A stretch of DNA of 18,753 nucleotides from a virus (taxonomy: Duplodnaviria; Heunggongvirae; Uroviricota; Caudoviricetes). Numbering within the stretch: position 1 is the first letter of the stretch; each line of letters opens with the position of its first letter. The DNA lies in the IMG/VR virus record IMGVR_UViG_2698536576_000004, one strand, 5' to 3'. Under the pieces are notes generated by a model that did not search any database, was not told the origin of the DNA, and worked only from the letters and a program-made list of their open reading frames with translations. Below, in pieces: positions 1 to 17,155 of the stretch. The translations under genes were made by a program, and so were the position numbers.

Positions 1-1
1 A

Positions 2-1297: not shown

Positions 1298-1316
1298 TAG
1301 TTAGTGTGGCTTTTAG

Positions 1317-1568: not shown

Positions 1569-1640
1569 CGATTTCTTTATCTCTTACATCAGACGAGCGC
1601 CGGTTGCAGAATACCAGTCACAACCGGCGACAGTTGAACA

Positions 1641-4112
1641 TTAAGAATCAGCCTGACTCGGGATCAGTTTTTGCCAGATAACTGAAACGTATTTTGCCTG
1701 GTAACGGGCGTCATCAAGTGCATTATGGCGCTCACCTTCGAATGGAATAGCCGTTCTGGCATCGAAGTCTATGGCTTTCCCCAGCTCAACGATTGTGCGT
1801 ACATCGCGATCGTTGTAGTAACGCCACGGGCAGGGGATCCCCTGCCGTTCGTATGAACGGCGCAAAATCGTGTTGTCGAAGTTGGCTCCATTTCCCCAGA
1901 CCTGAACAAAAAATTCACCGGAGTTTTCGTCGATAAATTCCCGCAATTGTAACAGTGCATCATCTAACGGGATTTCATCGGTCATAATGGCAGATTGCGC
2001 TTCGCGTGATTGCTTAAGCCACCATTTAATGGTGTCCCGATCAATGACTCCGCCAGCAGTTTCCAGATCGATAGTCTTACTAAATTCCGGTCCCATATCT
2101 CCGGTTTGCGGATCGAAAAATATTGCACCTATTGAGATGATCGGGGCATCAGGATTTTTTCCCATGGTTTCAAGGTCGATCATTAGATGGTCACACGTCC
2201 TGCTGGTGGATGTGATTTCGTGATGACCGTTCACCTTAATTGAGTGATCTGCCGTCTCGCCAGTTTCATTATCGCTATCGTGATGCTGATTGCCGCCAGT
2301 GTTCTCCTTGTGTGGATGTTCAGCGCCTTCCATTTCCTTCGGATCATCTTCCTGAACTTCAACCTGATACTCTTCATCGAATGTTTCCTGGTATGTTGCG
2401 TCGCCCATCACCGCGCCACAATCAGGGCAGTTGTCGCCGCCGGTCTGACCGCAGGCGGTGCAGACTTTTTCCACTTCCTGTTGCGCCACTGGTTCAGGCT
2501 GTTTCGTTTCTGGCTCGTTTTGTAACGCATTTGGGCTGTTTTGTTCCGCTTTTTGGTAGTTCCGTTCCGATTCATGCTGGTTCTGGTTCACAGAATCGCG
2601 GGTCTGGATCCCCTTAACCCATTTCGGATCATTCGGGTCACTAATCCCTTCAACAAATTCACCACGTGATGCAGCAAGCAACTTATCGGCGTCAGGCTGG
2701 CTGATATTGGCTGCCTGCATAATTTTGTTTACTTCGTTAGCGGTAACTTTTATCGGTTCTGGTTGTTCTGAATCTTCAGCGGTATCTACATTTTGCGGTA
2801 AGCCCGTGTATGTGCCATTTTTTCGGGCAAAATATTCTTCTTTAGTGATTTCAGTGGCGCCAGCAGCCAGTGCCTTATCCAGACCAGAAAGTTTGTTTGC
2901 GCGACCGTATTTTTCTCCGTCCTTATCTGCGAAGAGGAAATAGAACGGCCCCTCACGCTCTACAGATGGTTCAGCTTCCGGCGCGGTTTCATTTTTTGGG
3001 ATATCAGATACCTCAGTTTCCACTGCATCAGTTTGTGTTTCTGATGACTGGAGAACATCAACAGTGCCCAGGTCTGTTTCTTCATTCTCAAACACGCCCT
3101 TTGTCGTCAGGTATTCGCAGATATATTTGTTCAGTGCTACGGGTTCTTTGTGAATGTCGATCGGACGCTCACGGACAAGGCCAAAAATAGTTTGGCGGTC
3201 GTAGCGAAGGGCATCAGGCTGTTTGCGCATTGATGCCGAGATACGCTTCCAGTCTTCGCGGTCGTTGTCGATAACTTCTTTTTTTGCCCAGCGATGGATG
3301 CTGCCGTCAATGTTTCCGGCATCCACATCACCAGGCCAGAGAGCGTAGGCCAGTTCGTCATCCAGTGTTTTCCATGTCTGCTTGTATTCGCGATGAATGG
3401 CAGCAATGACCGGGCTGATTTTTCCTGTTGAATTTTCAGTGTACTGTTGATTGGCTCTGGTGCGGGCGAGATCAACAACAGACGTGTATTTTCCGGTTTC
3501 CTTGCGTTCACCTTCGCGACGTTTTTTCCAGATGCGCATCTCTGCCTGAATTTCGGGCCATTTAGCACCAGGAATACATTTATGCTTAACCCACCCAATG
3601 GCGTGCAACTTAAGCTCCGGATACATGGCGTTAACTTCTGGCATTTTCATCAACGCTTCAACGATATGTCCGTCGAATGTTGCCATGTCTTCCTGCAACA
3701 ATTCCTGTGCGCTAATAACCATATCAACGGTGATGTTTTCACATGTGTCGAACTTAACCATGACAGCGTTCTGTACTTCAGGGGCCAGCTTGTCAAAAGT
3801 GACGTTCATCGGATCGGATTTAGTCTCAACCGGGACAAAAGAAGCAGACTCCTCATCCCAGCGGTTTTCCTGCATATATTCAGCATCCCATGAATCGAGG
3901 GCAGGGCGGGGTATGCCAGGTTTATCCTCGCAGACAATAAATTTATAAGCGCAGTCCTGAGCAGCCGTATAATGTTCCAGGAACTGCCAGTGAAATTTTG
4001 CTCGAGCACGGCGTTCGTCGCCAGCTTCAATGGCTGTGGCTACAGCCACAGCGCCTTCTTCCCTTGTTGCCAGTTCGTCAGGAATAGCGGCGCAAATAAA
4101 GACTTTACTCAT
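1641..4112 (-). CDS. Phage exonuclease, 823 aa; C-terminal DnaQ/DEDDh-like 3'-5' exonuclease domain (often annotated 'exodeoxyribonuclease VIII-like')
   Basis: C-terminal ~190 aa carry 'MIDLETMG...' (Exo I motif D-x-E) and a distal 'HNALDDARY' (Exo III H-x4-D). Central Cys4 ribbon 'CTACGQTGGDNCPDCG' and a long acidic/Gln-Pro-rich linker. SD-like GAGG 9 nt upstream of ATG at 4112. Confidence 0.8.
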   Translation of the reverse strand: MSKVFICAAIPDELATREEGAVAVATAIEAGDERRARAKFHWQFLEHYTAAQDCAYKFIVCEDKPGIPRPALDSWDAEYMQENRWDEESASFVPVETKSDPMNVTFDKLAPEVQNAVMVKFDTCENITVDMVISAQELLQEDMATFDGHIVEALMKMPEVNAMYPELKLHAIGWVKHKCIPGAKWPEIQAEMRIWKKRREGERKETGKYTSVVDLARTRANQQYTENSTGKISPVIAAIHREYKQTWKTLDDELAYALWPGDVDAGNIDGSIHRWAKKEVIDNDREDWKRISASMRKQPDALRYDRQTIFGLVRERPIDIHKEPVALNKYICEYLTTKGVFENEETDLGTVDVLQSSETQTDAVETEVSDIPKNETAPEAEPSVEREGPFYFLFADKDGEKYGRANKLSGLDKALAAGATEITKEEYFARKNGTYTGLPQNVDTAEDSEQPEPIKVTANEVNKIMQAANISQPDADKLLAASRGEFVEGISDPNDPKWVKGIQTRDSVNQNQHESERNYQKAEQNSPNALQNEPETKQPEPVAQQEVEKVCTACGQTGGDNCPDCGAVMGDATYQETFDEEYQVEVQEDDPKEMEGAEHPHKENTGGNQHHDSDNETGETADHSIKVNGHHEITSTSRTCDHLMIDLETMGKNPDAPIISIGAIFFDPQTGDMGPEFSKTIDLETAGGVIDRDTIKWWLKQSREAQSAIMTDEIPLDDALLQLREFIDENSGEFFVQVWGNGANFDNTILRRSYERQGIPCPWRYYNDRDVRTIVELGKAIDFDARTAIPFEGERHNALDDARYQAKYVSVIWQKLIPSQADS

Positions 4113-4205
4113 TTTGTTTTAACCTCATGACAGATTTAAGGATGAACAAATCCCTGCCATTGCTGGCATATAAGAATGAAACCGGATATTTATTACGGAA
4201 CTGTT

Positions 4206-4397
4206 TTAAAGACCTGCCGGGATTTCGATATTATCCTGGTGAATAACTTTATCGACCGGGTAACAGTTACCGGGAATTTTCTGTTCGGTTGCTGCAGTCA
4301 TACACTCCTGCATTGTCCTGTGAACACTGACTGCAATATCAACTGGCTCTCCGGAAACAAGAAAAACTGTCAGAACAAGCGCAAATGCTGAATTCAT
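4206..4397 (-). CDS. ydfD: YdfD-like small protein with N-terminal hydrophobic/signal-like segment (Qin lysis-associated protein family)
   Basis: 63-aa product starting 'MNSAFALVLTVFLVSGEPV...'. SD AAGGA 8 nt upstream of ATG (4395-4397). ATGA overlap with the dicB stop suggests translational coupling. Length and position match K-12 ydfD as recalled. Confidence 0.7.
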   Translation of the reverse strand: MNSAFALVLTVFLVSGEPVDIAVSVHRTMQECMTAATEQKIPGNCYPVDKVIHQDNIEIPAGL

Positions 4398-4582
4398 TGT
4401 GCACATCCTTTTGGCATCAGACGTAAACGAGCCAGCATTGAAACAATGCATATTTTATTTAATAGCTCCCGTTCTTGTTTTCTCTTGTTAATGGCATCTT
4501 CAGTAAATACAGGGTTACTGATAGAGACACCAATTTCAAAACAACCTTCAGACGTATTAACGTTTGGTAATAACGTTTTCAT
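4394..4582 (-). CDS. dicB: DicB cell-division inhibitor (MinC-activating), 62 aa
   Basis: 'MKTLLPNVNTSEGCFEIGV...MPKGCAQ', 62 aa, matches my recollection of DicB in length and sequence. SD GAGGA 8 nt upstream of ATG at 4580-4582. Lies ~170 bp downstream of DicF, as in Qin. Confidence 0.8.
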   Translation of the reverse strand: MKTLLPNVNTSEGCFEIGVSISNPVFTEDAINKRKQERELLNKICIVSMLARLRLMPKGCAQ

Positions 4583-4750
4583 TATCGCGTCCTCAACAAT
4601 GAATTTTGTGATGCAGTGCCTGGTGCCTCCAGGTGACGTTAACCAGTTAACAATTAACGCCGGATACAGAGAATCCACCCATAACACTGTTTTTGGTTTT
4701 AACTGTTCCGCGTGCGCTTAGCCGCATTCACCGCATCACAAAATTCACTT

Positions 4751-4809
4751 TAAAAACGGCGGCAGAGCAGTCACGGAGTAAAACTGATACCGCCAAACGT
4801 CACCAGAAA
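4751..4809 (-). ncRNA. dicF: DicF small RNA (ftsZ-targeting sRNA of the dicB operon) with intrinsic terminator hairpin
   Basis: Minus strand reads 5'-TTTCTGGTGACGTTTGGCGGTATCAGTTTTACTCCGTGACTGCTCTGCCGCCGTTTTT-3', essentially identical to the DicF sequence as I remember it, including the GGCGG...GCCGCC stem and U-run. Ends approximate to +/-3 nt. Confidence 0.85.
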
Positions 4810-5085
4810 ATTGATAACAGAGGGCGTTGCAGCGGGGTTGTCACTTAAGCGTATGGTCAACCTGACAACTCGGTGTCCTCAACGGGGAAGGAATAACCCC
4901 GCCATACTTACCGCCGCGCCATTTCGCGGTTTGCCACAACCGGAAGCGCACGGTCGAATTAAATTTAACGACACCGTACAGTGAGACGAACTTCGCCGTG
5001 CGCTTTCGTGTTGTGTGCCTGCTTTTAACCACGTCAGGCGAGGTGGTATCCTTCTTATCCCGAATAACCAAGAAGGAAATCTATA

Positions 5086-5285
5086 TGACTAAAGAAGAAT
5101 TTGTCTCTTATATTTTTGATAAAACGGTTGAAATGTATGCCGCTACTTACGGGTCCTGTAATCCTCTGAATAAACCAGAGGGGAAAGATGATTTCGACAA
5201 AATTTACCGCTTCTTGGAGGACCGCTATATCAAAAGGTTAGAGGACGCAGGGATCAAATCCCCAGTGAAGTCACCATTGTCCTGA
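5086..5285 (+). CDS. Hypothetical 66-aa protein, antisense-oriented within the leftward early operon
   Basis: ATG at 5086 preceded by AAGGAA with ~7-nt spacing. Product 'MTKEEFVSYIFDKTVEMYAATYG...' has globular-like composition. Overlaps the 3' end of the minus-strand ydfB/C-region ORF by ~30 bp. No homolog recognised. Confidence 0.3.
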
Positions 5286-5631
5286 GAACTTGCAGGACGT
5301 CATGATCGTAACTTCCATCCAAACCGCGACGGCAAATTGCTTCTCGTATTACCGGAAGCAGTTCGCTGGAAATCTCGGTGCATATTTCACCTGCTAATAC
5401 GCCTGGCTCAAGTGAGAATATTGGTGAACTTACGGTCTTGGTCTCGACAGTTTCAGAGTCAGTGCCAACATTATAAAGCTCAACGAAAGCGGTCTTGATT
5501 TTCCGGGCCAGATCTTTTGCTGGCTCGCTTGCAATATCTTTCCCGATTTCTCGCAGCACAGAATGCAATGTATGAGCTGCTGTTTTCTGTACATCAGACG
5601 GTAAATCTTTAAATTCCATCGTCAGCCTCAT
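5254..5631 (-). CDS. Hypothetical early-operon protein (occupies the ydfB/ydfC position of Qin)
   Basis: 125-aa ORF. The ATG at 5629-5631 overlaps the upstream gene stop (TGATG). A second ATG at 5617-5619 has GAGG 9 nt upstream. Same strand and operon as dicA/ydfA/dicB. Confidence 0.55.
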   Translation of the reverse strand: MRLTMEFKDLPSDVQKTAAHTLHSVLREIGKDIASEPAKDLARKIKTAFVELYNVGTDSETVETKTVSSPIFSLEPGVLAGEICTEISSELLPVIREAICRRGLDGSYDHDVLQVLRTMVTSLGI

Positions 5632-5783
5632 CAGTCAGTGTTTCTGGCTAACCAGCAACGCGCGCCAGATTCGGTTTTAAACGTTTTGCTTTTGGTATAT
5701 GTCATCGCGGTGAACGTACCGTCCTGGTTGGGGAACACGCCACATACCAGAGATTCGCTGTTGCCAAGATCGATAGTATCCAT
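5631..5783 (-). CDS. ydfA: YdfA-like small protein (50 aa)
   Basis: 'MDTIDLGNSESLVCGVFPNQDGTFTAMTYTKSKTFKTESGARCWLARNTD'. GAGG 6 nt upstream of ATG at 5781-5783. Size and position (first gene after the operator downstream of dicA) match ydfA. Confidence 0.7.
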   Translation of the reverse strand: MDTIDLGNSESLVCGVFPNQDGTFTAMTYTKSKTFKTESGARCWLARNTD

Positions 5784-5896
5784 GCTGACCTCATTTCCCC
5801 TTAACGCCGGGGTAGCGGAACTGTTTGCTGAGAACACCGTGCGGTGTGTTGATGGAGGTAATTTAGTTTTCTCATTATTTTTCGTCAAGGTTTTTT

Positions 5897-5918
5897 GATG
5901 AGAAAACTCAAGTATTGG
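5897..5918. promoter_or_regulatory. Putative DicA operator at the early-left (dicB operon) promoter
   Basis: 'TGAGAAAACTCAAgTATTGG' is a near-identical copy of the motif in the dicA/dicC intergenic region (6435-6453). Core TTGAG-N4-CTCAA is palindromic. Lies between the dicA stop and the ydfA start. Confidence 0.5.
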
Positions 5919-5975
5919 CGCAAGATAAAGCCAATACATTGAAATGTAAGGCTTTAAAATTTTGTGAAGGGATGA

Positions 5976-6383
5976 TTATTGATGCTTGTTGCGTTTGCGA
6001 GCCTCTAATAGCTCGGTGAACAGGCGATTAAAATTCTCAACGCGGGCGCGGAGTTCGCTGAGTTGTGCTTGTTGCTCTGATTTAGGAAGTGCGCGATACA
6101 AACGCAGCATCTCTAACTCATCTTCCGATAAGTCTAAGGCACTATCGAGTGAAACAGGGGGAGCTGGTGTTTTGTCCTCGTCGCCAAACAGTATCCAGGT
6201 TGGTGAACATTGCAATACCTCGGCGAGGCGATGCAAATTTTGCCCGCGCGGGGCTGTATGGTCACTTTCCCATAATGAAATTGATGAGCCAGATACGCCA
6301 GCAGCTTTGCTTAAACCGTTTTGACTTAAGCCTACCTGCTTACGTCTTTCTCTAATGCGTTGACCTAAAGTTTTCTCGTTCAT
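5976..6383 (-). CDS. dicA: DicA-like HTH (XRE family) prophage repressor
   Basis: 135-aa product from ATG 6381-6383. The '...LQCSPTWILFGDEDK...' block and C-terminal '...RARVENFNRLFTELLEARKRNK' match DicA as recalled. HTH region 'GLSQNGLSKAAGVSGSSISLWE'. An upstream in-frame ATG at 6432-6434 is also possible. Confidence 0.85.
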   Translation of the reverse strand: MNEKTLGQRIRERRKQVGLSQNGLSKAAGVSGSSISLWESDHTAPRGQNLHRLAEVLQCSPTWILFGDEDKTPAPPVSLDSALDLSEDELEMLRLYRALPKSEQQAQLSELRARVENFNRLFTELLEARKRNKHQ

Positions 6384-6404
6384 ATTTAGATATCTTAATA
6401 ACCC

Positions 6405-6453
6405 TTGACTTGAGATTCCTTGAGTGATTAGCATTGAGAAAACTCAATATTGG
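6405..6453. promoter_or_regulatory. Divergent dicA/dicC control region: candidate dicC promoter plus DicA operator
   Basis: TTGACT (6405-6410), 17-bp spacer, TTAGCA (6428-6433) as a weak -10. Palindrome TTGAGAAAACTCAA at 6434-6447 plus additional TTGAG half-sites at 6409-6425. Confidence 0.45.
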
Positions 6454-6460
6454 AGGTGCG

Positions 6461-6688
6461 ATGTTTAAATCAGACGTAATTAATTTTTACGGTACGAAAG
6501 CCAAAGTAGCGAAAGCTGCTGGCGTTGACCCATCTGCTGTTTCTCAATGGCAAGAGCTGGTTCCTGAAGGTCGCGCGATGCGTCTACAGGAGGCATCTGG
6601 CGGCGAGCTTCTGTATGATCCCAAGGTTTATGACGAATATCGTAAGACGAAGCGGGCGGGGCGGTTGAACAATGAAAATCACTCCTGA
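6461..6688 (+). CDS. dicC: DicC-like Cro-type regulator (YdaS/DicC family)
   Basis: 75-aa product from ATG 6461 with GGAGG SD. C-terminal '...LVPEGRAMRLQEASGGEL.YDPKVYDEYRKTKRAGRLNNENHS' matches DicC as recalled. Divergent from dicA. Confidence 0.8.
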   Translation: MFKSDVINFYGTKAKVAKAAGVDPSAVSQWQELVPEGRAMRLQEASGGELLYDPKVYDEYRKTKRAGRLNNENHS

Positions 6689-7193
6689 ACAGGCTCGTGA
6701 GGCTCTGGATGCTTGGATATGTCGACCAGGAATGACACAGGAGCAGGCGACGATATTAATCACTGAAGCATTCTGGGCTTTGAAAGAGCGCCCGAACATC
6801 GATGTTCAGCGTGTCACAGATGAAGGTGGCGCGGTTGATCAGCGAGCGCTTGGCGTTAATCGAGTGAAGATATTCGAACGCTGGAAGGCTATCGACACCA
6901 GGGATAAGCGTGAAAAGTTCACGGCGCTAGTGCCTGCAATTATGGAGGCTATCCGGATTAATGATTTCAGGTTGTATCGTGAAATTAGTGACGGAAAAAG
7001 CATCACGTACATGATCGCCGGGTTAAACAAAGAATATGGCGATGTGGTGGAGTCCGGACTGCTTTTTGCTGATCCTGCCGTAGTGGATCGTGAAACTGAC
7101 GAACTTATAGAAAAAGCAATTGCTTTCAAACTTGCGTATCGACAGCAATACCAACAAAAAGCTGGATGGAATTATGAGCCTTCTTTTTGCTGA
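6672..7193 (+). CDS. YdaT-like protein (functional CII-position protein of Rac/CP-933P-type prophages)
   Basis: 173-aa ORF overlapping the dicC 3' end by 17 nt. Position right after the Cro-like gene and loose similarity to YdaT; assignment from memory, moderate. Confidence 0.55.
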   Translation: MKITPEQAREALDAWICRPGMTQEQATILITEAFWALKERPNIDVQRVTDEGGAVDQRALGVNRVKIFERWKAIDTRDKREKFTALVPAIMEAIRINDFRLYREISDGKSITYMIAGLNKEYGDVVESGLLFADPAVVDRETDELIEKAIAFKLAYRQQYQQKAGWNYEPSFC

Positions 7194-8139
7194 ACGCCCA
7201 CTGGTTATAAACACACAGCTTGCGATGAAGATTGGCTTAAATGAAGCCATTGTGTTGCAGCAGTTGCATTACTGGTTGAGAGATACCAATTCCGGCATGG
7301 AATGTGATGGTGTTCGCTGGATTTACAACACAACGGAACAATGGCTGGAACAGTTCCCATTCTGGTCAGAGTCAACGTTAAAGCGCGCGTTTGCAAGTCT
7401 GAAAACGCTGGGGCTTTTGCGTTGTGAAAAGCTCAATAAATCAAAGCGCGATATGACCAATTTCTACACGATTAACTATGGGAGCGAGCTTTTAGATGAT
7501 GGCAAATTGAGCGAATCCATCGGTTCAAAATGCGCCGCTCCATCAGGTCAAAATGACACGATGGAAGAGGTCAAAATGAAACGCTCCATTGGTTCAAAAC
7601 GACCCAATGTCATCGGGTCAAAATGGCCTGATGATCTTACAGAGAATACAACAGAGATTACTACAGAGAATAAAAACACTTTTCGTCCGGAAGCTTCGCA
7701 ATCGGACCCGCAGACAGCTGAACAGAATTATTTAACCCAATATCCTGACGCGGTGGTTTTCAGTGCTAACAAACGTCAGTGGGGGAATCAGGAGGATTTG
7801 GCGTGTGCGCAATGGATCTGGGCACGAATCGTGAGCCTTTACGAACAGGCCGCCAGTGATGATGGCGAGATCATGCGACCAAAAGAGCCTAACTGGACTG
7901 CCTGGGCTAATGACGTGCGCACAATGCGGATGCTGGATGGCAGAAGCCATAAACAAATTTGCGAAATGTTTGGTCGGGTTCAGCGAGATCCATTCTGGGT
8001 AAAAAACATCATGAGCCCTTCAAAGCTCCGCGAAAAATGGGATGAACTGGTCATTCGCCTGGGGCGTTCACCTGTACAGCGTTGTGTGAATCATATTTCT
8101 GAGCCGGACAGCGAAATTCCACCGGGATTCAGGGGGTAG
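7174..8139 (+). CDS. Phage replication initiator/replisome organizer with DnaT-like C-terminal domain
   Basis: N-terminal wHTH-like 'LVINTQLAMKIGLNEAIVLQQLHYWL'. C-terminus '...ISEPDSEIPPGFRG' closely resembles the E. coli DnaT (primosomal protein I) C-terminus as recalled. Contains an internal iteron array. Start at ATG 7174 chosen; the ORF is open from 7120 (TTG). Confidence 0.8.
   Translation: MSLLFAERPLVINTQLAMKIGLNEAIVLQQLHYWLRDTNSGMECDGVRWIYNTTEQWLEQFPFWSESTLKRAFASLKTLGLLRCEKLNKSKRDMTNFYTINYGSELLDDGKLSESIGSKCAAPSGQNDTMEEVKMKRSIGSKRPNVIGSKWPDDLTENTTEITTENKNTFRPEASQSDPQTAEQNYLTQYPDAVVFSANKRQWGNQEDLACAQWIWARIVSLYEQAASDDGEIMRPKEPNWTAWANDVRTMRMLDGRSHKQICEMFGRVQRDPFWVKNIMSPSKLREKWDELVIRLGRSPVQRCVNHISEPDSEIPPGFRG
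7522..7626. repeat. Iteron-like direct repeats (GG(T)TCAAAA(T)G x5, 22-26 bp period) inside the replication gene; putative ori
   Basis: Copies at 7522, 7546, 7569, 7591 and 7617, followed by an A/T-rich segment with ACAGAGA(A/T)TA x3 (7640-7675). Architecture parallels ori-lambda inside gene O. Gives the protein its repeated 'IGSK' motif. Confidence 0.6.
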
Positions 8140-8141
8140 GT

Positions 8142-8354
8142 ATGCACAGCAGTAATCAACAGGCCGCAATCCAGCATTTGCTGGAGAACGGGGAAGCCAC
8201 GTTCCGGGAGCTGGCTGATGCTCTTGGTGTGACCAACAAGAAAATTCAAAACCTGCTCCAGAACATACAGCGGTACGGGCAGCTTGTGCGGGAGGGGAAA
8301 AAATATCGGCTGGTACCGAACTGGCAGGAAAAATCTGCATTGCAAAAGCGGTAA
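8142..8354 (+). CDS. Hypothetical small protein, possible winged-helix DNA-binding fold
   Basis: 70-aa ORF. ATG at 8142 three nt after the replication-gene stop, with GGGGG/AGG SD. Sequence 'FRELADALGVTNKKIQNLLQNIQRYGQLVREGKKYRLV' looks HTH-like. Confidence 0.6.
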   Translation: MHSSNQQAAIQHLLENGEATFRELADALGVTNKKIQNLLQNIQRYGQLVREGKKYRLVPNWQEKSALQKR

Positions 8355-8603
8355 CCGAAAGGTCAACAGCGTCGAAACAGGCTGCGGCGCAGGAATGTCG
8401 CCGGAACAGCAACGGATACCAGAGACAAAAAATTTTGGGGAGTAGTCGGGGAGTCGGTAACAGAGCTTAGGTAGAGCAATTGATGCCAACTGACCTCTAA
8501 CGTTTTGTTTCATGTTGTCATTATGTTTCAATTTAGTGGAATTGTTAATAAAATGTTTTTATAATTAAAAACCAAACTACAGATAGCATGGAGCTTTTGT
8601 TCA

Positions 8604-10160
8604 ATGAATGCCTATAAATTCAGAAATAATGATGAGATTGGAAAATTAGAGGCGGAAACTGATTCTTATCTTGATGCTTGTTTTTATGAGTCCAATGTTT
8701 TTAAAGGTATTGTGAATTTTGACTCTACTGAGAAGAATCCTGATTTTACAAGAAGAATTATTGTTGGAAGAACAGGAAGCGGTAAGTCTGCGTTGCTTAA
8801 AAAAATATTAGACAAAGGAAATATTAAGCTGCATGACACAATAGAGGCAGAAAATACGATATTTGAACATATTAATAACAATGTGTTTATATCTGATTTG
8901 ATCTCGAAAGGGATAGATTTACGTGGGTTTTATAAATCGTTATGGCTGCATGTATTACTTATGAAAGTTATACCAGCCGTTTATCGTTCTTCCTATCAAA
9001 GCTTTTTTGAGGAAATTAAAGATCTTATTGGTGGTAAGAAGAAACCGTATAAACCAGAAGTTGCGAATGATTATATTGAACAATTTAAAGAAAATTTCTT
9101 CAATGATAAAGCGCTCATTGAAATAAGTAACAAGCTTGAAAGTGATTTGTCATTCAAACTCGGAAATTCCGCTGTTGGTGTGGGTGGTAAAATATCTAAT
9201 TCTGATACAGCCAAAATACAATCAGAAACTTCAAGTTATGTGAGTCGTGAACTTCTTTTTAAACAAAAAGAACTTATTAAAATACTTAAAGAGGAGTTCG
9301 CTGACTCAAACCAGGTTAGAATAGTAATCAGTATCGATGATTTAGATAAATCTTGGTTAAGCACGAGCGCCATCAGATATGACTTTATTAATGCTCTTCT
9401 TGAGGCCTTTCGAGAATTATTAGATATAAAGTCGGTTAAGGTTCTGATATCAATAAGAACAGATATTTTAATGGGAATTTATAAAAGTAGTTTAAGGCAG
9501 GATGAGAAAGATCAATCTTTAATATATTCCATATCATGGAATAAAACGGAAATAAGAGAGATTATTGATGCTAGAATTAACCATTTGGTTAAAAATAGAT
9601 ATCAATCAAATAAGTCTGTATTAATGAAGGATATTTTTAATTTTACAGTTGAAGGTATTGGAGCAGATGATTATATCCTTGACAGAACAATGCTTAGGCC
9701 TAGAGATGCAATTAATTTCGTAAATATATGTCTTTCTGAGTGCGATGGTATGGTTAACATGAATGAAAATATTGTGTTAATTGCCGAAGAGAAATTTTAT
9801 TCATCCAGAAAGAGAGCTTTGGTTACAGAATGGAAAAGCATATATCCGTTTATCGAAGAATATTTGGATGTGCTTTCCTTGATTTCATTTTCTGATTTTA
9901 CAGTCTCAAACATAGGACAAGCAGTAAAAGATGATATATCGCAGCATTTACTTGATAGATTGACTGTAGTTAAAGAGGATGATCAACATACAAAAATATT
10001 GATGAATTTTGAGGAGTTACTTAAAGTCTGGTTCGTCGTAGGCGTGGTTGGCATAAGGAAAACAGCATCTTTAATTATATATTCATCTTTTGATAAACCT
10101 AATTTGGATATTACTGATATGAAGAGAGATTTTGTAATACATCCGTTGTTTGATAGGTAA
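8604..10160 (+). CDS. P-loop NTPase, 518 aa, KAP-like Walker motifs; AT-rich cargo gene, candidate defense/abortive-infection protein
   Basis: Walker A 'GRTGSGKS' (nt 8766-8789). Walker B-like 'RIVISIDDLDK' (IDDLD at nt 9333-9347), resembling the KAP-family hhhhDDLDR. Possible Arg motif 'LRPRDAINF'. Markedly lower GC than flanking genes (by eye, not computed). Preceded by an AT-rich promoter-like region (8500-8600). Confidence 0.85.
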   Translation: MNAYKFRNNDEIGKLEAETDSYLDACFYESNVFKGIVNFDSTEKNPDFTRRIIVGRTGSGKSALLKKILDKGNIKLHDTIEAENTIFEHINNNVFISDLISKGIDLRGFYKSLWLHVLLMKVIPAVYRSSYQSFFEEIKDLIGGKKKPYKPEVANDYIEQFKENFFNDKALIEISNKLESDLSFKLGNSAVGVGGKISNSDTAKIQSETSSYVSRELLFKQKELIKILKEEFADSNQVRIVISIDDLDKSWLSTSAIRYDFINALLEAFRELLDIKSVKVLISIRTDILMGIYKSSLRQDEKDQSLIYSISWNKTEIREIIDARINHLVKNRYQSNKSVLMKDIFNFTVEGIGADDYILDRTMLRPRDAINFVNICLSECDGMVNMNENIVLIAEEKFYSSRKRALVTEWKSIYPFIEEYLDVLSLISFSDFTVSNIGQAVKDDISQHLLDRLTVVKEDDQHTKILMNFEELLKVWFVVGVVGIRKTASLIIYSSFDKPNLDITDMKRDFVIHPLFDR

Positions 10161-10390
10161 TAGCAATGTGAATATGTTGAGACTACTGGAAAAGCTATAA
10201 CTCCTTTAGTAAAGTTTCCGTGGGTGCTTGAGGCTATCTGTCTCAGGCATGAACACCAAAGGCAGATAGAGAAAAGCCCCAGTTAACATTACGCGTCCTG
10301 CAAGACGCTTAACATTAATCTGAGGCCAATTTCATGCTAGACACATGTAGGTTAGCCTCTTACGTGCCGAAAGGCAAGGAGAAGCAGGCT

Positions 10391-10546
10391 ATGAAGCAGC
10401 AAAAGGCGATGTTAATCGCCCTGATCGTCATCTGTTTAACCGTCATAGTGACGGCACTGGTAACGAGGAAAGACCTTTGCGAGGTACGAATCCGAACCGG
10501 CCAGACGGAGGTCGCTGTCTTCACAGCTTACGAACCTGAGGAGTAA
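10391..10546 (+). CDS. hokD: Hok/Gef-family membrane toxin (HokD/RelF-type)
   Basis: 'MKQQKAMLIALIVICLTVIVTALVTRKDLCEVRIRTGQTEVAVFTAYEPEE', 51 aa, matches HokD/RelF as recalled. SD AAGGAGAAG upstream. In-frame upstream extension from 10334 not annotated separately. Confidence 0.9.
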   Translation: MKQQKAMLIALIVICLTVIVTALVTRKDLCEVRIRTGQTEVAVFTAYEPEE

Positions 10547-10613
10547 GAGACCCGGCGAGGGAGAAATCCCTCGCCACCTCTGATGTGGCAGGCATCCTCA
10601 ACGCACTCGCACT

Positions 10614-10641
10614 TAACCCGCTTCGGCGGGTTTTTGTTTTT
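10614..10641 (+). terminator. Rho-independent terminator downstream of hok
   Basis: Stem CCCGC-TTCG-GCGGG (10617-10630) followed by TTTTTGTTTTT. An additional hairpin GCGAGGGA...TCCCTCGC at ~10553-10575 is typical of hok mRNA 3' structure. Confidence 0.7.
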
Positions 10642-10762
10642 ATTTTCAACGCGTTTGAAGTTCTGGACGGTGCCGGAATAGAATCAAAAATACTTAAGTA
10701 GCGCGCAGGGATAAGAGGGATGGTCCCTTAAAGGGGAGAGCTAATTATCCGGAAGGATTCTG

Positions 10763-11014
10763 ATGATGAACATCGAAGAACTGCGTAAAATTTTTTGTGA
10801 AGATGGCCTCTATGCTGTGTGCGTTGAAAATGGAAATCTTGTTAGTCATTACCGCATTATGTGTTTGCGAAAGAATGGGGCTGCGTTAATTAATTTTGTG
10901 GATGGTCGAGTGACAGACGGATTTATCTTGCGCGAAGGTGAGTTTGTCACTTCATTACAGGCACTGAAAGAGATCGGAATAAAAGCAGGCTTTTCAGCTT
11001 TTGCAGAAGAATAA
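10763..11014 (+). CDS. rem: Rem-like small prophage protein (function unknown)
   Basis: 83-aa ORF. GGAAGGA SD 5 nt upstream of ATG. Position immediately downstream of hokD matches Qin rem (83 aa); identity assigned from memory of gene order and size. Confidence 0.6.
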   Translation: MMNIEELRKIFCEDGLYAVCVENGNLVSHYRIMCLRKNGAALINFVDGRVTDGFILREGEFVTSLQALKEIGIKAGFSAFAEE

Positions 11015-11080
11015 ACTCATCTACAATCTTGCGCGGGGCTGAACTCCCGCTGAGTAACACCGTGCCACCGGAGAAAACCG

Positions 11081-11359
11081 ATGGCACGCAACGTAAAATA
11101 TTACAATTCTGATAATTCGCCCGTTCTTGCCTGCACGCACGGGCGGTATTCTCACGCATTCAAGTCTGAATGGTTCCAGCACCCTCCATGCACTGCAGAA
11201 CAGGCCGAATGGCTGATTCATTCTTACCGCAGGCGCGGGTTCGAGGTTAAGAAAGCTCTCAGTCTCGACTATCGGCACTGGATAATCTCTGTCAGGCTGC
11301 CTTATTCCGAACGCCCACCACGTGCGTCCCGCACTTTCCAGCAACGGATCTGGAGGTAA
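11081..11359 (+). CDS. Hypothetical 92-aa protein
   Basis: ATG at 11081 with GGAG 8 nt upstream. Its stop TAA (11357-11359) lies inside/next to the SD of the following GTG-start gene, suggesting translational coupling. Confidence 0.5.
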   Translation: MARNVKYYNSDNSPVLACTHGRYSHAFKSEWFQHPPCTAEQAEWLIHSYRRRGFEVKKALSLDYRHWIISVRLPYSERPPRASRTFQQRIWR

Positions 11360-11360
11360 C

Positions 11361-12410
11361 GTGCGGGTATTACTTAGACCTGTTCTGGTGCCTGAGCTTG
11401 GGCTGGTGGTCCTTAAGCCGGGCCGTGAATCCATACAGATATTTCATAATCCTCGAGTGCTGGTGGAACCGGAACCAAAAAGCATGCGTAATCTGCCATC
11501 CGGAGTCGTTCCTGCCGTTCGCCAGCCGCTGGCGGAAGACAAAACATTGCTGCCGTTTTTTAGTAACGAACGGGTGATTCGTGCTGCTGGCGGCGTTGGC
11601 GCATTGTCTGACTGGCTATTACGTCATGTTACATCCTGCCAGTGGCCTAATGGCGATTACCATCACACTGAAACAGTCATTCACCGTTATGGTACCGGCG
11701 CAATGGTGTTGTGCTGGCACTGCGACAACCAACTGCGTGACCAGACATCGGAATCACTGGAGCTGCTTGCTCAACAAAATCTGACAGCATGGGTGATTGA
11801 CGTCATCCGTCACGCAATAAGCGGTACGCAGGAGCGGGAATTATCTTTGGCTGAATTATCCTGGTGGGCGGTCTGCAATCAGGTGGTGGATGCACTACCT
11901 GAGGCTGTATCGCGTCGTTCGCTGGGATTACCAGCGGAAAAAATCTGCTCGGTGTACCGCGAAAGCGACATCGTACCGGGAGAGCAGACCGCCACCAGCA
12001 TATTGAAACAACGCACAAAAAATCTTGCACCGTTGCCTTACGCCCACCAGCAACAAAAACCACCACAGGAAAAGACGGTGGTAAGCATCAACGTTGATCC
12101 AGAGTCTCCGGAATCTTTCATGAAGCTGCCTAAACGTCGCCGCTGGGTTAAGGAGAAATACACTCGTTGGGTTAAGACACAGCCGTGTGCTTGCTGCGGT
12201 ATGCCAGCCGACGATCCGCATCATCTGATTGGTCACGGGCAGGGCGGAATGGGAACAAAAGCACATGATCTCTTTGTGTTGCCTTTGTGCAGAAAGCATC
12301 ACAACGAGCTGCATACGGATACAGTGGCATTTGAAGAGAAGTATGGCTCCCAACTGGAGCTGATATTTCGTTTTATCGATCGCGCGCTGGCAACTGGCGT
12401 ACTGGCGTAA
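11361..12410 (+). CDS. ydfU: DUF968-family prophage protein (YdfU-like) with C-terminal Cys/His-rich HNH-like motif
   Basis: 349-aa product if started at GTG 11361 (GGAGG 4 nt upstream). C-terminal 'CACCGMPADDPHHLIGHGQGGMGTKAHDLFVLPLCRKHHNELH'. Position between rem and Q as in Qin. The ORF is open from 11322. Confidence 0.7.
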   Translation: MRVLLRPVLVPELGLVVLKPGRESIQIFHNPRVLVEPEPKSMRNLPSGVVPAVRQPLAEDKTLLPFFSNERVIRAAGGVGALSDWLLRHVTSCQWPNGDYHHTETVIHRYGTGAMVLCWHCDNQLRDQTSESLELLAQQNLTAWVIDVIRHAISGTQERELSLAELSWWAVCNQVVDALPEAVSRRSLGLPAEKICSVYRESDIVPGEQTATSILKQRTKNLAPLPYAHQQQKPPQEKTVVSINVDPESPESFMKLPKRRRWVKEKYTRWVKTQPCACCGMPADDPHHLIGHGQGGMGTKAHDLFVLPLCRKHHNELHTDTVAFEEKYGSQLELIFRFIDRALATGVLA

Positions 12411-12423
12411 GTGGAGAACGAGC

Positions 12424-13176
12424 ATGAACCTTGAAGCCTTACCAAAATATTACTCCCCAAAATCTCCAAAATTGAGCGATGACGCTCCAGCGACAGGCAC
12501 CGGTTGTTTAACAATTACGGATGTAATGGCAGCGCAGGGGATGGTGCAGTCGAAAGCACCACTTGGGTTGGCCTTATTTCTGGCAAAAGTTGGTGTTCAG
12601 GACGCTCAGTTTGCGATTGAAGGCCTGCTAAATTACGCGATGGCACTGGATAACCCGACATTGAACAAATTGAGTGAAGAAATCCGGTTACAGATTATTC
12701 CTTACCTCGTGAATTTTGCCTTTGCTGATTACTCCAGGTCTGCGGCAAGTAAGGCTCGCTGTGAGCATTGTTCAGGTACGGGATTTTATAATGTATTGCG
12801 CGAAGTGGTGAAACACTACAGACGCGGGGAATCTGTAATCAAGGAAGAATGGGTGAAGGAACTATGTCAGCATTGCCATGGTAAGGGCGAAGTCAGCACA
12901 GCGTGCAGAGGGTGTAAGGGGAAAGGGATTGTTCTGGATGAAAAAAGAACCCGGTTTCATGGCGTACCGGTATATAAGATTTGTGGGCGTTGTAATGGAA
13001 ACCGGTTTAGTCGTTTACCGACCACGCTGGCACGACGTCATGTCCAGAAGCTGGTACCAGACCTGACCGATTATCAGTGGTATAAGGGGTATGCGGACGT
13101 CATTGGTAAACTGGTAACAAAGTGCTGGCAGGAAGAAGCATACGCGGAAGCGCAATTGAGGAAGGTGACGAGATAA
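12424..13176 (+). CDS. quuQ: Late-gene antitermination protein Q
   Basis: 250 aa. Cys-rich zinc-binding motifs 'CEHCSGTG', 'CQHCHGKGE', 'CRGCKGKG', 'CGRCNG'. GGAGA SD 7 nt upstream. Followed by a promoter/terminator pair typical of PR'/tR'. Confidence 0.85.
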
Positions 13177-13207
13177 ATGATTTTTGCTGAAGATGGCGAC
13201 ATGATGT

Positions 13208-13236
13208 TTGCATTTTTCAAAAAACATGGATAAGAT
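13208..13236 (+). promoter_or_regulatory. Candidate late promoter (PR'-like) downstream of Q
   Basis: TTGCAT (13208-13213), 17-bp spacer, TAAGAT (13231-13236). A qut-type Q-utilisation site would be expected to overlap. Inferred from position and hexamers only. Confidence 0.35.
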
Positions 13237-13282
13237 TTTCTCAACGATGGGCTTTGTGTATCCGACGTTTAGAAAAAAGTAG

Positions 13283-13307
13283 AAAACCCGCTTATAAGCG
13301 GGTTTTT
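13283..13307 (+). terminator. Intrinsic terminator (tR'-like), potentially bidirectional
   Basis: Perfect stem AAAACCCGCTT/AAGCGGGTTTT around a short loop, with an A-run upstream and T-run downstream. About 105 bp past the Q stop. Confidence 0.65.
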
Positions 13308-13655
13308 GTGCTTTAAATGGGGCAATAGAGATATTGAATCTCATCCCGGGATAAACATTGGCAGTTGAAGGTCCACGCGAACCATTTATCCAGCAAAATT
13401 CCACGCGTAATCCTGTGGTAATTTCTTCTGCATCTCGAAGATTGAGAGCTGAAACGTGAAGCTGGGCATCGATACGCCATCGGATGGGAATATAAGACCT
13501 TTGCTGCTTTTGTAGTCAAAGTTTTTGACAATTCCTGTCATTTTAGGGGACAGAAAAACTCCTTAATACTGATAACCGGGTGCACCATACACACGTTCCT
13601 GGAGAAAACTACTTTTTTGATAGGATTGAAGGTGGCTGGATGTCTAAAATAAACA

Positions 13656-13684
13656 TTGCTTCATATGTTCAACTATGAGTTAAT
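13656..13684 (+). promoter_or_regulatory. cspB-like promoter (TTGCTT-17-GTTAAT) preceding a ~160-nt cold-shock 5' UTR
   Basis: Same hexamer architecture as the promoter upstream of the second csp gene (16558-16586). UTR contains a GCCGAAAGGC element near the RBS, similar to the cspA-family 5' UTR. Confidence 0.45.
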
Positions 13685-13851
13685 GACTGCGTCGGTTTGA
13701 AGAACAGACGATATACGAAGTAGTTTACTAAAGCAGTTCTCATTTCAGGTGTTATTCACTTATTCCTTCTTTGAGTCTCTCCAATTAAGTACGAAGTCGT
13801 TTCTGTTATGCAAACCATTTATGCCGAAAGGCTCAAGTTAAGGAATGTAGA

Positions 13852-14067
13852 ATGTCAAATAAAATGACTGGTTTAGTAAAATGGTTTAACGCTGATAAAG
13901 GTTTCGGCTTTATTTCTCCTGTTGATGGTAGTAAAGATGTGTTTGTGCATTTTTCTGCGATTCAGAATGATAATTATCGAACCTTATTTGAAGGTCAAAA
14001 GGTTACCTTCTCTATAGAGAGTGGTGCTAAAGGTCCTGCAGCAGCAAATGTCATCATTACTGATTAA
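13852..14067 (+). CDS. cspB: Cold-shock protein (CspA family), CspB-like
   Basis: '[38 protein letters not shown]...' with RNP1 'KGFGFI' and RNP2 'VFVHF' motifs. 71 aa. AAGGA SD 7 nt upstream. Confidence 0.9.
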
Positions 14068-14348
14068 AATTCATCGCTCGTCTGTATACGATAACGAAGA
14101 AGGCTGATGCCTGAGTAGAGATACGGACAGAGTAGTGAATATTGGATCTCTTTAATAAAAAGTAAGGAGGTCCAATACATGAAACAATGGCTAGCATATT
14201 TGGCAAAATCTTAATCAGGAAAAGTATGCTAACCATTGTGGTGAAGTGCAGGTTTGCTGCATGAATAGTTTTACAGCAGAAGCTAACTGCTGGCATGGCA
14301 AAACAAAGTGCGTAAGTGGATGACTCCCACAAAAAGCACCACAATCTC

Positions 14349-14371
14349 AAACCCGCTCAGGCGGGTTTTTT
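14349..14371 (+). terminator. Rho-independent terminator
   Basis: AAACCCGC-TCAG-GCGGGTTT followed by TTTTTATT. Lies ~280 nt downstream of cspB and ~60 nt beyond the 3' end of the convergent minus-strand zinc-ribbon gene. Confidence 0.7.
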
Positions 14372-14430
14372 ATTATCTGCTTTAAATATATTATTAAAAT
14401 ATAAAAAATACTTGTTACTAATAAAATCAA

Positions 14431-14601
14431 TCAGGCTACAGCTTTAAGATTTGTCTGGAATACTTTGTTGCAATGAGGGCAGATCAAAAGGGCACCTTTT
14501 TGTACTCTTGAAAAACTGTGTTCTGACTCTTGGGTGCAGTTTGGGCAGGAACATTTAACGAGATAATTACGGCGTGATTTTGAGTCTTTACGTTCTGACA
14601 T
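14431..14601 (-). CDS. Small zinc-ribbon protein (CxxC...CxxC), hypothetical
   Basis: 56-aa product 'MSERKDSKSRRNYLVKCSCPNCTQESEHSFSRVQKGALLICPHCNKVFQTNLKAVA'. AGGA ~9 nt upstream of ATG at 14599-14601. The ORF is open from 14652. Confidence 0.5.
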   Translation of the reverse strand: MSERKDSKSRRNYLVKCSCPNCTQESEHSFSRVQKGALLICPHCNKVFQTNLKAVA

Positions 14602-14819
14602 AGGCTTTTCCTGTATAAATGGCCGTATACAGTACACTAAATATGAAAACATTTCTCGTATTATTATTTTATATATGATTTTCTTTCAAAATAATTACCC
14701 ACATTTTTAATGTGTATGTTTTTTAGCGCCGTTGAGAACAACGTGTGCTGTCAAAACTACCCCGTAGACTCCGATCTTTTCAAACATATTGCACCATCCG
14801 TGTACATCGGGGTGAGGAT

Positions 14820-15035
14820 ATGAAATCAATGGATAAGTTAACAACAGGTGTTGCCTATGGCACATCGGCGGGTAATGCTGGTTTCTGGGCATTGCAGTTA
14901 CTCGATAAAGTAACTCCGTCACAGTGGGCTGCAATCGGTGTGCTGGGTAGCCTGGTTTTTGGCCTGCTGACGTATCTGACAAATCTTTATTTCAAGATTA
15001 AAGAAGACAGGCGTAAGGCTGCGAGAGGAGAGTAA
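14820..15035 (+). CDS. essQ: Class II holin (phage 21 S-type pinholin), dual-start 'MKSM'
   Basis: '[71 protein letters not shown]' (71 aa) closely matches S21/EssD-type holins. GAGGA SD. Two in-frame starts, Met1 and Met4 (holin/antiholin). Confidence 0.9.
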
Positions 15036-15039
15036 TCCA

Positions 15040-15347
15040 ATGACTCAAGACTATGAACTGGTTGTGAAAGGAGTCCGTAATTTTGAGAATAAAGTTACGG
15101 TAACTGTAGCCTTACAGGACAAAGAACGCTTTGACGGTGAAATTTTTGACCTGGATGTCGCCATGGACCGTGTTGAAGGAGCTGCGCTGGAGTTTTATGA
15201 GGCAGCAGCCAGAAGGAGCGTCCGGCAAGTCTTCCTGGAAGTAGCAGAAAAATTGTCAGAAAAAGTTGAGTCTTATCTGCAGCATCAGTACTCCTTTAAG
15301 ATTGAAAATCCTGCCAATAAGCACGAGCGTCCTCATCATAAATATAT

Positions 15348-15351
<4 letters not shown>
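15040..15351 (+). CDS. ydfR: DUF1327-family lysis-cassette protein (YdfR-like)
   Basis: 103-aa ORF between holin and endolysin. AGGAG SD. Stop overlaps the endolysin start (ATGA). Confidence 0.7.
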
Positions 15352-16375
<1,024 letters not shown>

Positions 16376-16586: not shown

Positions 16587-16737
16587 GGTGTTCTGGTTTG
16601 TTACAAATTTATCTGAAGCAGTCATTGTTATAATTTTATTATTTGTACCTCTTGAGATTTCCTTGTTGGTTTTTCTCTCTGATATTTTTTTTCGGACCAT
16701 TCTGCCCAAGGGCTAATTTCTTCAAAAGGTAATAATT

Positions 16738-16950
16738 ATGTCTAACAAAATGACTGGTTTAGTGAAATGGTTTAACCCTGAAAAAGGTTTTGGTTTCATC
16801 ACGCCGAAAGATGGCAGCAAAGATGTGTTTGTCCATTTCTCAGCAATTCAGAGCAACGATTTCAAAACATTAACTGAGAATCAGGAAGTTGAATTTGGTA
16901 TTGAGAACGGACCTAAAGGTCCTGCCGCTGTTCATGTAGTGGCGCTTTGA
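16738..16950 (+). CDS. cspI: Cold-shock protein (CspA family), CspI-like
   Basis: '[70 protein letters not shown]', 70 aa, with RNP1/RNP2 motifs. AAGGT SD 7 nt upstream. Confidence 0.9.
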
Positions 16951-17155
16951 GGTAGACAATATTACAAACCATATTCACTTTAGATGCCCGTGTTGTCATG
17001 GTTCCCAGTATAGAACATCATCTTTTGATGTTTCTGACATGAATCCTTTCGGGGCAAAATGTATCTTTTGTAAATCAATGATGATTACATTTGATAATAT
17101 TTCACAATACTTAAATGCCAGCCGTCTGTCGTTGGATTTAAAAAAGTGAAAATGA

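Follow-up and report, generated by a model that had tools for sequence, protein, structure and literature searches.

The hok/sok locus of plasmid R1 and the hokW/mokW/sokW locus of phage 933W are built to the same plan, with tac and fbi elements, a 70-codon mok frame lying over a 51-codon hok toxin gene, and a convergent antisense RNA of about 71 nt. In the published hok/sok model, tac pairs with fbi and closes the hok mRNA from its 5' to its 3' end. In the Qin prophage of Escherichia coli K-12, hokD (also called relF) lies in the order relB-relE-hokD-rem-ydfU-ydfT; co-transcription of relBEF is documented, and K-12 hokD is read from the relBE promoter. The defence or "moron" hotspots of P2 and P4 (Rousset 2022, Vassallo 2022) have fixed flanks and swappable cargo that is mostly single-gene and low in GC, and known defence genes are among this cargo. 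The window considered here is the whole of an 18,753-nucleotide stretch of DNA from a tailed virus (Caudoviricetes; IMG/VR record IMGVR_UViG_2698536576_000004). It is a Qin-like lambdoid prophage of E. coli in which a gene for a 518-aa P-loop nucleoside triphosphatase (NTPase) is followed by hokD. The two are best understood as independent, separately mobile modules that are adjacent because cargo lands at this place in a Qin-type prophage, a reading to which a probability of roughly 0.72 is given.

An earlier sequence-only reading of this DNA had seen the NTPase and the hok gene on the same strand about 230 bp apart, had called hokD intact with a terminator of its own, and had expected a Sok-type antisense RNA over the hok leader. 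All of this holds. Exactly 230 nt separate the stop codon of the NTPase gene from the ATG of hok, both genes are on the plus strand, and the HokD of the window is 100% identical to that of K-12. To judge from its elements, the hok/mok/sok type I toxin-antitoxin module is complete here. The messenger unit begins with GGGTGCTTGAGG, folds with z = -6.5 over 10222-10641, and has a full-length match to Rfam RF01794 (10222-10396; 118 bits, gathering score 59). The plus-strand match to this Rfam "sok" entry was considered as the strand of Sok itself and rejected, since the model spans the whole hok leader in the mRNA sense. The antisense RNA, named SokD here, is placed on the minus strand. It is predicted to have a single-stranded 5' end over the mok ATG, followed by a long hairpin and a U-tail (-30.5 kcal/mol, z = -5.5), and the position of its putative promoter is conserved in other alleles as TTGACC ... 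TAATCT.

Comparison with phage 933W points the same way. Its locus has 93% nucleotide identity to the unit in the window and a leader without indels, and its annotated sokW, mokW and hokW map to exactly the coordinates and strands given in Table 1 for SokD, mok and hokD. Two differences are seen. The module lies elsewhere in the 933W genome, and the -35 element of the hok promoter comes from cassette sequence in the window, unlike in other hok alleles. Also, the antisense RNAs have diverged unevenly: 6 of the first 17 nucleotides differ between SokD and SokW (locus L024, 1551-1621) compared to 1 of the remaining 54. The SokD and SokW alleles may not cross-regulate, and the divergent recognition end is consistent with allele-specific recognition among hok/sok copies that reside in the same cell.

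The hok module is common and travels by itself. Of 5426 E. coli genomes, 4007 have at least 80% of the unit, and the median copy number is two; the unit is also found in 79 phage records and in phage-plasmids. In nearly all comparisons, whether with E. coli, phage or phage-plasmid copies, similarity sets in at precisely 10222, where the mRNA begins, so the hok module is a discrete unit and its start a recurrent recombination boundary. Hok loci can meet other fates as well. In E. coli O111:NM 2010C-3053, a copy of IS1203 (IS3 family) is found inside the hok coding sequence with a 3-bp flank overlap (L015, 4015-5747), meaning that another hok locus has been inactivated by an insertion sequence (IS). 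A promoter-like site, TTGAAG-18-TAGAAT, is present on the plus strand between the hok terminator and rem in the window (10655-10684) and is possibly a chance match.

A cassette of about 1.7 kb, with a GC content of 31.4% compared to 48-51% in the flanks, comprises the NTPase gene together with the AT-rich region upstream of it and some 45 nt of 3' flank. Homology to other Qin-like prophages ends at 8141 (at 8482 for backbones that carry a winged-helix gene) and restarts at 10205/10222, and the cassette starts at about 8471-8483. From its composition and these breaks, the cassette is foreign to the prophage. The unit 8142-10221 is found in 10 of the 5426 complete E. coli genomes, always whole and at 99.8-100% identity. 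When the query is widened to 7800-11400, with the cassette still in it, identity falls to about 98.8% in nine of those ten. It follows that most mismatches are in the flanking DNA, as would be expected if the unit had recently been transferred onto diverged backbones or if the flanks had recombined. A search with the cassette DNA gave no match in the phage collection and one irrelevant weak Acinetobacter match in the plasmid collection. The NTPase would have its own promoter in the AT-rich region, where a perfect candidate -10 is accompanied by a weak -35 (the site is unscored by the consensus scan), and GGAG at 8590-8593 is a candidate Shine-Dalgarno sequence for the ATG at 8604. Another promoter-like site in this region (8520-8548, minus strand, TTAACA-17-CATAAT, 10 of 12 consensus positions) points away from the NTPase and is possibly a chance match.

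The left edge of the cassette adjoins a winged-helix gene of the replication module. The 70-aa open reading frame (ORF) annotated here is the front part of a frameshifted remnant. Its homologues are 106-111 aa long with 75-80% identity across all 70 aa, the homology to Citrobacter-type prophage DNA spans 8138 to 8471-8482, and the frame-2 translation matches the C-terminus of their proteins. The remnant has a GC content of about 50%, as does the backbone, and the idea that the 70-aa ORF is a regulator of the cassette is ruled out, since it is a frameshifted backbone gene of normal GC. It was also considered as a diverged DUF977; with 23% identity and E=0.007 it is at most a positional analogue. 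The intact winged-helix gene elsewhere precedes DUF1627 and other cargo and, further on, hok. The frameshift apparently lies near an A-run at about 8300-8330 (position judged by eye), and the E. coli cluster P0130 (100 aa) is a different reading of the same region.

The NTPase belongs to the Sll1717 family, with a score of 180.5 bits against NCBIfam NF047389 (cutoff 75) over residues 12-516 and profile positions 1-450 of 454. The Pfam match to KAP_NTPase (PF07693) is marginal and partial (28 bits, cutoff 20, E=1.6e-6), extending over just positions 30-206 of the 293 in the profile, and matches to nSTAND1 and AAA_22 are weak. The Walker A motif GRTGSGKS is at about residues 55-62 and the Walker B motif ISIDDLD at about 242-248; these and several other motifs are invariant in 38 homologues of 54-89% identity. 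A search of the sequence against Protein Data Bank (PDB) chains gave nothing useful (best E=0.2), and a literature search on "Sll1717" found no papers. The AlphaFold2 model (pLDDT 79.7), compared with the PDB by Foldseek, gives weak best matches to ORC/Cdc6 initiators and BrxC (E about 3e-3, TM about 0.3), weakly suggesting an AAA+ fold of the ORC/Cdc6-BrxC kind in which a long helical insert separates Walker A from Walker B. BrxC is a BREX component, yet no BREX partner genes are nearby. KAP-family NTPases likewise combine a P-loop domain with a long helical insertion. Transmembrane helices are typical of the classical KAP NTPases. No nuclease, protease, membrane or other effector domain was recognised in the NTPase by Foldseek and profile scans, with no dedicated transmembrane prediction made.

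Elsewhere, homologues of the NTPase occur singly on mobile elements, in positions of at least six other kinds. These include an IncFII plasmid (beside a recombinase and a TacAT module), an integrative and conjugative element (beside UvrD and TraI), a prophage at the icd site (adjoining the integrase), the tail-fibre end of another prophage, a Yersinia plasmid (beside ParAB), and P2-like prophages (between the portal and gpA genes). The portal-gpA interval of P2 has been described by others as a defence hotspot. In Providencia P2-like prophages, a 72%-identical homologue occupies this interval (L030/L031, 4001-5557). DNA similarity to the homologues is limited to the ORF. At all 13 homologue loci examined, in seven contexts, no Hok ORF or hok-like DNA is present within 4-5 kb, and no neighbour is conserved across them. 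Judged by these contexts, the NTPase is a stand-alone mobile gene. Single-gene occurrence in varied mobile contexts is typical of stand-alone defence cargo, and a defence role is therefore preferred: on balance, the NTPase is most likely single-gene anti-phage defence cargo. The accession of the protein (WP_001741757.1) is also listed in DefensePredictor Table S10, apparently as representative of the cluster to which a hit with a score of 14.7 and the label "Predicted novel defense gene" belongs; this listing is a prediction, not a validation.

The comparison of prophages indicates that Qin-like lambdoid prophages keep a variable cargo slot in the early-right operon, between the replication genes and hok/sok. 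At least eight different contents are found between the replication genes and the hok promoter among the prophages compared: a SIR2 protein, QueH with a methyltransferase fragment, nothing at all (BL21/BLR(DE3)), a DUF4209 protein, an "anti-phage dCTP deaminase", sce7726 with a "beta family" protein, methyltransferase/DUF7167 pseudogenes (KMi029, NCTC9087) and the Paa adhesin (O157-type E. coli 7784). The right breakpoint of the slot recurs at 10222. As in the P2/P4 hotspots, known defence genes are part of the cargo (SIR2, dCTP deaminase). Unlike those hotspots, the slot is in Qin-like lambdoid prophages and also receives non-defence cargo (Paa, QueH). In E. coli 7784, the virulence adhesin gene paa lies directly upstream of the hokD unit (L023, 1-334), so the region takes virulence as well as defence-type cargo. 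No description of the slot as a named hotspot was found in the defence-hotspot literature searched, a search whose scope did not take in Brenes and Laub 2025. A short conserved hydrophobic ORF (ending in LAIVAVMAIYCLVIVLMDHLSD before the stop) is present, unannotated, between the cargo and the hok promoter in several Qin-like prophages (L003 at about 4890-4950, L004, L005, L013, L014); the NTPase lineage is without it.

Table 1. Positions of features in and around the NTPase-hokD locus, numbered from the first nucleotide of the window
Feature	Position	Strand	Basis and remarks
DicF small RNA	4757-4808	-	Rfam, 72.5 bits; typical of Qin
Frameshifted remnant of 109-aa winged-helix gene, replication module	8142-8470	+	annotated 70-aa ORF is 8142-8354; C-terminal part in another frame to TAG at 8468-8470
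Low-GC cargo cassette (NTPase gene, AT-rich upstream region, 3' flank)	~8483-10204	+	GC and homology breaks
Candidate -10 (TATAAT, perfect) of the NTPase's own promoter	8560-8565	+	read from sequence; putative
P-loop ATPase, Sll1717 family, 518 aa	8604-10160	+	NCBIfam NF047389
Hybrid hok promoter, TGGAAA (10187-10192), 17 nt, TAAAGT (10210-10215)	10187-10215	+	allele comparison; putative
Full-length hok mRNA unit, 5' end GGGUGCUUGAGG to terminator T-run	10222-10641	+	Rfam, start of homology, fold
tac element	10222-10233	+	minimum-free-energy fold, 12 bp with fbi at 10596-10608; predicted
Sok-type antisense RNA (SokD), ~71 nt	10272-10342	-	promoter, hairpin, mapping of 933W SokW
mok, 70 codons, overlapping hok with the same stop	10334-10546	+	ORF list; position of mokW of 933W, no indels
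Sok promoter, TTGCCT (10377-10372), 17 nt, TAACCT (10354-10349)	10349-10377	-	read from sequence; putative
16-nt site AGGAGAAGCAGGCTAT, uninterrupted in the window	10377-10392	+	exact direct repeat flanking the relBE block of KMi029 (L016, 4061-4076 and 7378-7393)
hokD toxin gene, 51 aa	10391-10546	+	Pfam HOK_GEF (PF01848), E=1e-23, full 42-position model
Intrinsic terminator of hok	10615-10641	+	7-bp GC-rich stem (hairpin 10615-10632), then TTTTGTTTTT
Two cspA-type thermoregulator 5' untranslated regions	13691-14083, 16592-16977	+	Rfam, 159 and 113 bits; before cspB-like and cspI-like genes; typical of Qin

How the two modules would work can be proposed from these parts. The first would be a foreign cassette that places a lone Sll1717-family ATPase in the "moron"/defence slot, where the NTPase, transcribed in the lysogen from an AT-rich promoter of its own, would act alone in abortive-infection-type protection against phages. 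If it works as other NTPase defence proteins do, nucleotide-dependent sensing and oligomerisation would lead to abortive infection. The second module would regulate itself. A stable hok mRNA would be locked by tac/fbi pairing, translation of hok would be coupled to that of mok, and a short-lived Sok RNA from the convergent promoter would block the mok start. Exchange of cargo in the slot probably occurs by recombination in the conserved flanks, which are the replication genes on the left and hok/sok on the right, and in the NTPase lineage the right-hand joint would have fallen inside the hok promoter.

Several points weigh against the reading of two independent modules with a defence NTPase. 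The defence role rests on context and a machine-learning prediction, the expression and phenotype of all the elements are inferred, and all promoter assignments are at the level of consensus matches. No hidden Markov model of PADLOC-DB v2 matches the NTPase at E<=0.01 (nor Hok, the O-like protein or Rem). Similarity to the defence protein DS-41 (AAA2), which the DefensePredictor study validated as a system of one gene, is also remote. DS-41 is likewise a single P-loop ATPase of about 500 aa and has Walker A, Walker B, an "ISWN" motif and a "PR(D/E)" motif in the same order, but the NTPase reaches only 39 bits against its profile NF053860 (cutoff 370), and BLASTP finds 24% identity over 74 aa. 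On this comparison, the NTPase is a remote homologue of DS-41 from a different family (Sll1717), not a member. Finally, the native -35 of hok has been lost and no terminator separates the two genes, so hok expression may depend in part on transcription of the NTPase gene, which would weaken the description "fully independent".

This last point is the basis of one rival explanation, in which the genes are coupled in transcription though their proteins are not partners. The cassette would have destroyed the native hok promoter and most hok mRNA would be read-through from the NTPase promoter. Hok dosage would then track NTPase expression, in parallel to K-12 hokD, which is read from the relBE promoter. 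The homology junction at about 10204/10205 is indeed inside the spacer of the hok promoter, with a -10 homologous to that of other hok alleles and a -35 derived from the cassette. Other alleles have TTGGCG, TTGGAG, TTGGCA or TTTGCG, a spacer of 17 nt, and TAGAAT, TAAAAT, TACAAT or TAGGAT, and in these alleles both elements are at a fixed distance from the hok +1. In the window, the native -35 (TTGGCG or TTTGCG) is replaced, and the putative hybrid promoter agrees with the consensus at just 8 of 12 positions, which is under the threshold of the scan. Between the NTPase stop at 10160 and 10222, neither the scan nor the fold gives a terminator or stable hairpin, and relBEF as one transcript provides a precedent. 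However, the -10 still has its proper spacing to +1, and positions 10150-10178 hold an alternative promoter-like sequence, TTGATA-17-TATGTT. Hok promoters are characteristically weak in any case. The intact leader, tac/fbi, mok and sok would also impose post-transcriptional control on a longer transcript. Coupling of this kind is considered unlikely, at about one chance in five.

A second rival, of about the same low standing, accepts the mobile cassette and disputes its function. Here the NTPase would not be a defence protein at all and would perform some other service to the mobile element, such as DNA transactions or element maintenance. The resemblance of the fold to ORC/Cdc6-type initiators fits with this, as does the name "DNA repair protein" given to the NTPase in some sources, the lack of a PADLOC match, and the location of homologues beside replication or partition genes in several contexts. 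Against it, the gene is a rare accessory and so dispensable to the prophage. It also lands in recognised defence hotspots, shares its slot with SIR2 and dCTP deaminase, is among the predicted novel defence genes of DefensePredictor, and is remote kin of the validated DS-41. A defence role is favoured over such other services, at the modest strength given above.

A bolder form of coupling is very improbable. In this proposal, the cassette would have rewired hok/sok so that hok mRNA is mainly a 3' extension of the NTPase transcript. Inducers of the NTPase promoter, such as phage infection or loss of prophage repression, would then also increase hok relative to sok, and membrane killing would join the response of the NTPase. 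If true, a defence NTPase and a type I toxin would have become coupled by accident, in this lineage only.

Even less probable is the direct replacement of a relBE module by the NTPase at one shared cargo-exchange site, which the sequence-only reading had put forward on the grounds that the NTPase occupies the slot of relBE. Part of that claim stands. The K-12 gene order given there is correct, the NTPase gene and relBE both lie in the interval after the replication genes and directly precede the hokD coding sequence, and the site of the NTPase does exchange cargo. The window has no RelB/RelE-like ORF: tblastn with K-12 RelB, RelE, YdfV and FlxA finds nothing in it (best E about 3; about 6 for RelB/RelE). 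The two loci share much, since K-12 Qin belongs to the same prophage family and has the same HokD and the same continuation rem-ydfU-ydfT after hokD. What does not stand is a shared site. Alignment to K-12 and Qin-like relatives puts the NTPase and relBE at different loci: the junctions are about 170 nt apart and of different kinds, a recombination joint at about 10204 and an apparent transposition into 10377-10392. Also, hok/sok is intact in the window over 10222-10641, with the 16-nt site uninterrupted.

The evidence for transposition comes from relatives of K-12. Homology between K-12 MG1655 and the window begins only at 10377, 14 nt before the hok ATG, and K-12 hokD is thus without promoter, leader, mok start and sok. 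Pedersen and Gerdes (in 1999) are said to have described hokD as inactivated by rearrangement. KMi029 and NCTC9087, which have a fuller K-12-type Qin, show what happened to the missing part. In both, DUF977 is followed by slot content of their own and then by an intact hok promoter and leader (equivalent to 10222-10392 of the window). After that leader comes a block of 3301 bp made up of a truncated ISEsa1-like gene pair (IS1202 family), ydfW, flxA, ydfV, relB and relE, and only then hokD, from the equivalent of 10377. The detached hok leader with its sok is therefore 3.3 kb upstream of the gene it belongs to. The block (KMi029 (L016) 4061-7393; also in NCTC9087 (L017); compare K-12 locus L002 at about 7276-7346) is flanked by the direct repeat AGGAGAAGCAGGCTAT, which covers the Shine-Dalgarno/ATG region of hok. 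It begins with TGTTAACACCAAGC and ends with GCTTTGCGTTGACA; these are imperfect inverted repeats matching at 19 of 26 positions, with TGT/ACA termini (binomial p about 4e-7). The inverted repeats were not listed by the repeat finder. They were found by reading both ends, and were then scored separately.

These features recall the hallmarks of the IS1202 family, which are TGT/ACA ends, inverted repeats of 24-26 bp, target duplications of 3-5 or 16-28 bp and a large transposase, and a truncated ISEsa1-like transposase is present at the left end of the block. From this combination, transposition of the IS1202-family kind is the apparent route by which relBE came to lie beside hokD. The IS1202-family-ended unit ydfW-flxA-ydfV-relBE would have entered the hok ribosome-binding region and severed hok from its leader and sok, and hokD would have become the third gene of the relBEF transcript. 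An earlier remark in the literature holds that integration of relBE shortened an ancestral 70-codon reading frame, a truncation of mok. K-12 itself has lost the detached leader in a larger deletion, judging from the comparison with KMi029 and NCTC9087. Two points count against transposition. ISEsa1 is reported to have no detectable target duplication, and the relBE unit, at 3.3 kb with passenger genes, has twice the length of an IS and a truncated transposase. For this reason, the scenario needs a second event or an element that carries passengers.

For the relation between relBE and the NTPase, the consequence is that K-12 relBE is on an apparently IS1202-type unit within the hok locus and not in the slot that holds the NTPase. 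The K-12-type relatives keep a filled cargo slot, as well as the detached hok leader, upstream of the relBE unit, and the NTPase-type backbone has the winged-helix gene in place of DUF977 and hence does not descend from the K-12-type arrangement.

Least likely of all, and contradicted by the distribution of the two genes, is the pairing also raised in the sequence-only reading, a two-gene defence system with the NTPase as sensor and Hok as membrane-disrupting effector: the genes are neighbours on one strand, the 230 nt that separate them contain no terminator, no effector domain is recognisable in the NTPase, and hok/sok of plasmid R1 reportedly excludes phage T4 (as Pecota and Wood are said to have found in 1996), but only 10 of the 4007 genomes with the hokD unit have the NTPase, the 13 homologue loci are without hok or any constant neighbour, the same hok unit stands behind SIR2, dCTP deaminase, DUF4209, QueH, other cargo or none, and hok has a complete antisense control of its own. 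On this evidence, the adjacency of the NTPase and hok is positional.

The rest of the window is typical of its prophage family. The left part runs int, xis, exo, DicF, dicB, a DicA-like repressor, cro, YdaT and an O-like protein (7120-8139), and the right part continues with the small winged-helix ORF, the NTPase, hokD, rem, ydfU, a Q-type antiterminator, and cold-shock and lysis genes. The continuation rem-ydfU-ydfT after hokD is common to the window and K-12. The same backbone order is found in the sequenced phage HannyBb, so the architecture belongs to viable phages. The window is 100% identical to E. coli strain LH85-a over 1-16275. There, a copy of IS1 lies in the DUF2514 (rzpQ-like) gene (L001, 17477-18244), at a site that is uninterrupted in the window. 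The 9 bp at 16267-16275 of the window are duplicated in LH85-a, and identity also stops at 18280 of the window.

Each component of the locus is of a known kind, and current concepts are unchanged. The additions are the exact junctions, the coordinates of SokD, the hybrid hok promoter and the transposon-like origin of relBE-hokD in K-12. The coordinates of SokD and of the hybrid promoter make the question of co-transcription directly testable. The adjacency of relBE and hokD in K-12, easily misread in this reference genome, appears to be a transposition scar that decapitated hok/sok and not the normal state of the locus; K-12 hokD ("relF") would thus be without the regulation found in most E. 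coli copies. Also, a concrete cargo slot of Qin-like prophages, from the replication genes to the 5' end of hok/sok, may serve as a source of single-gene defence candidates, such as the Sll1717-family ATPase, DUF4209 and sce7726.

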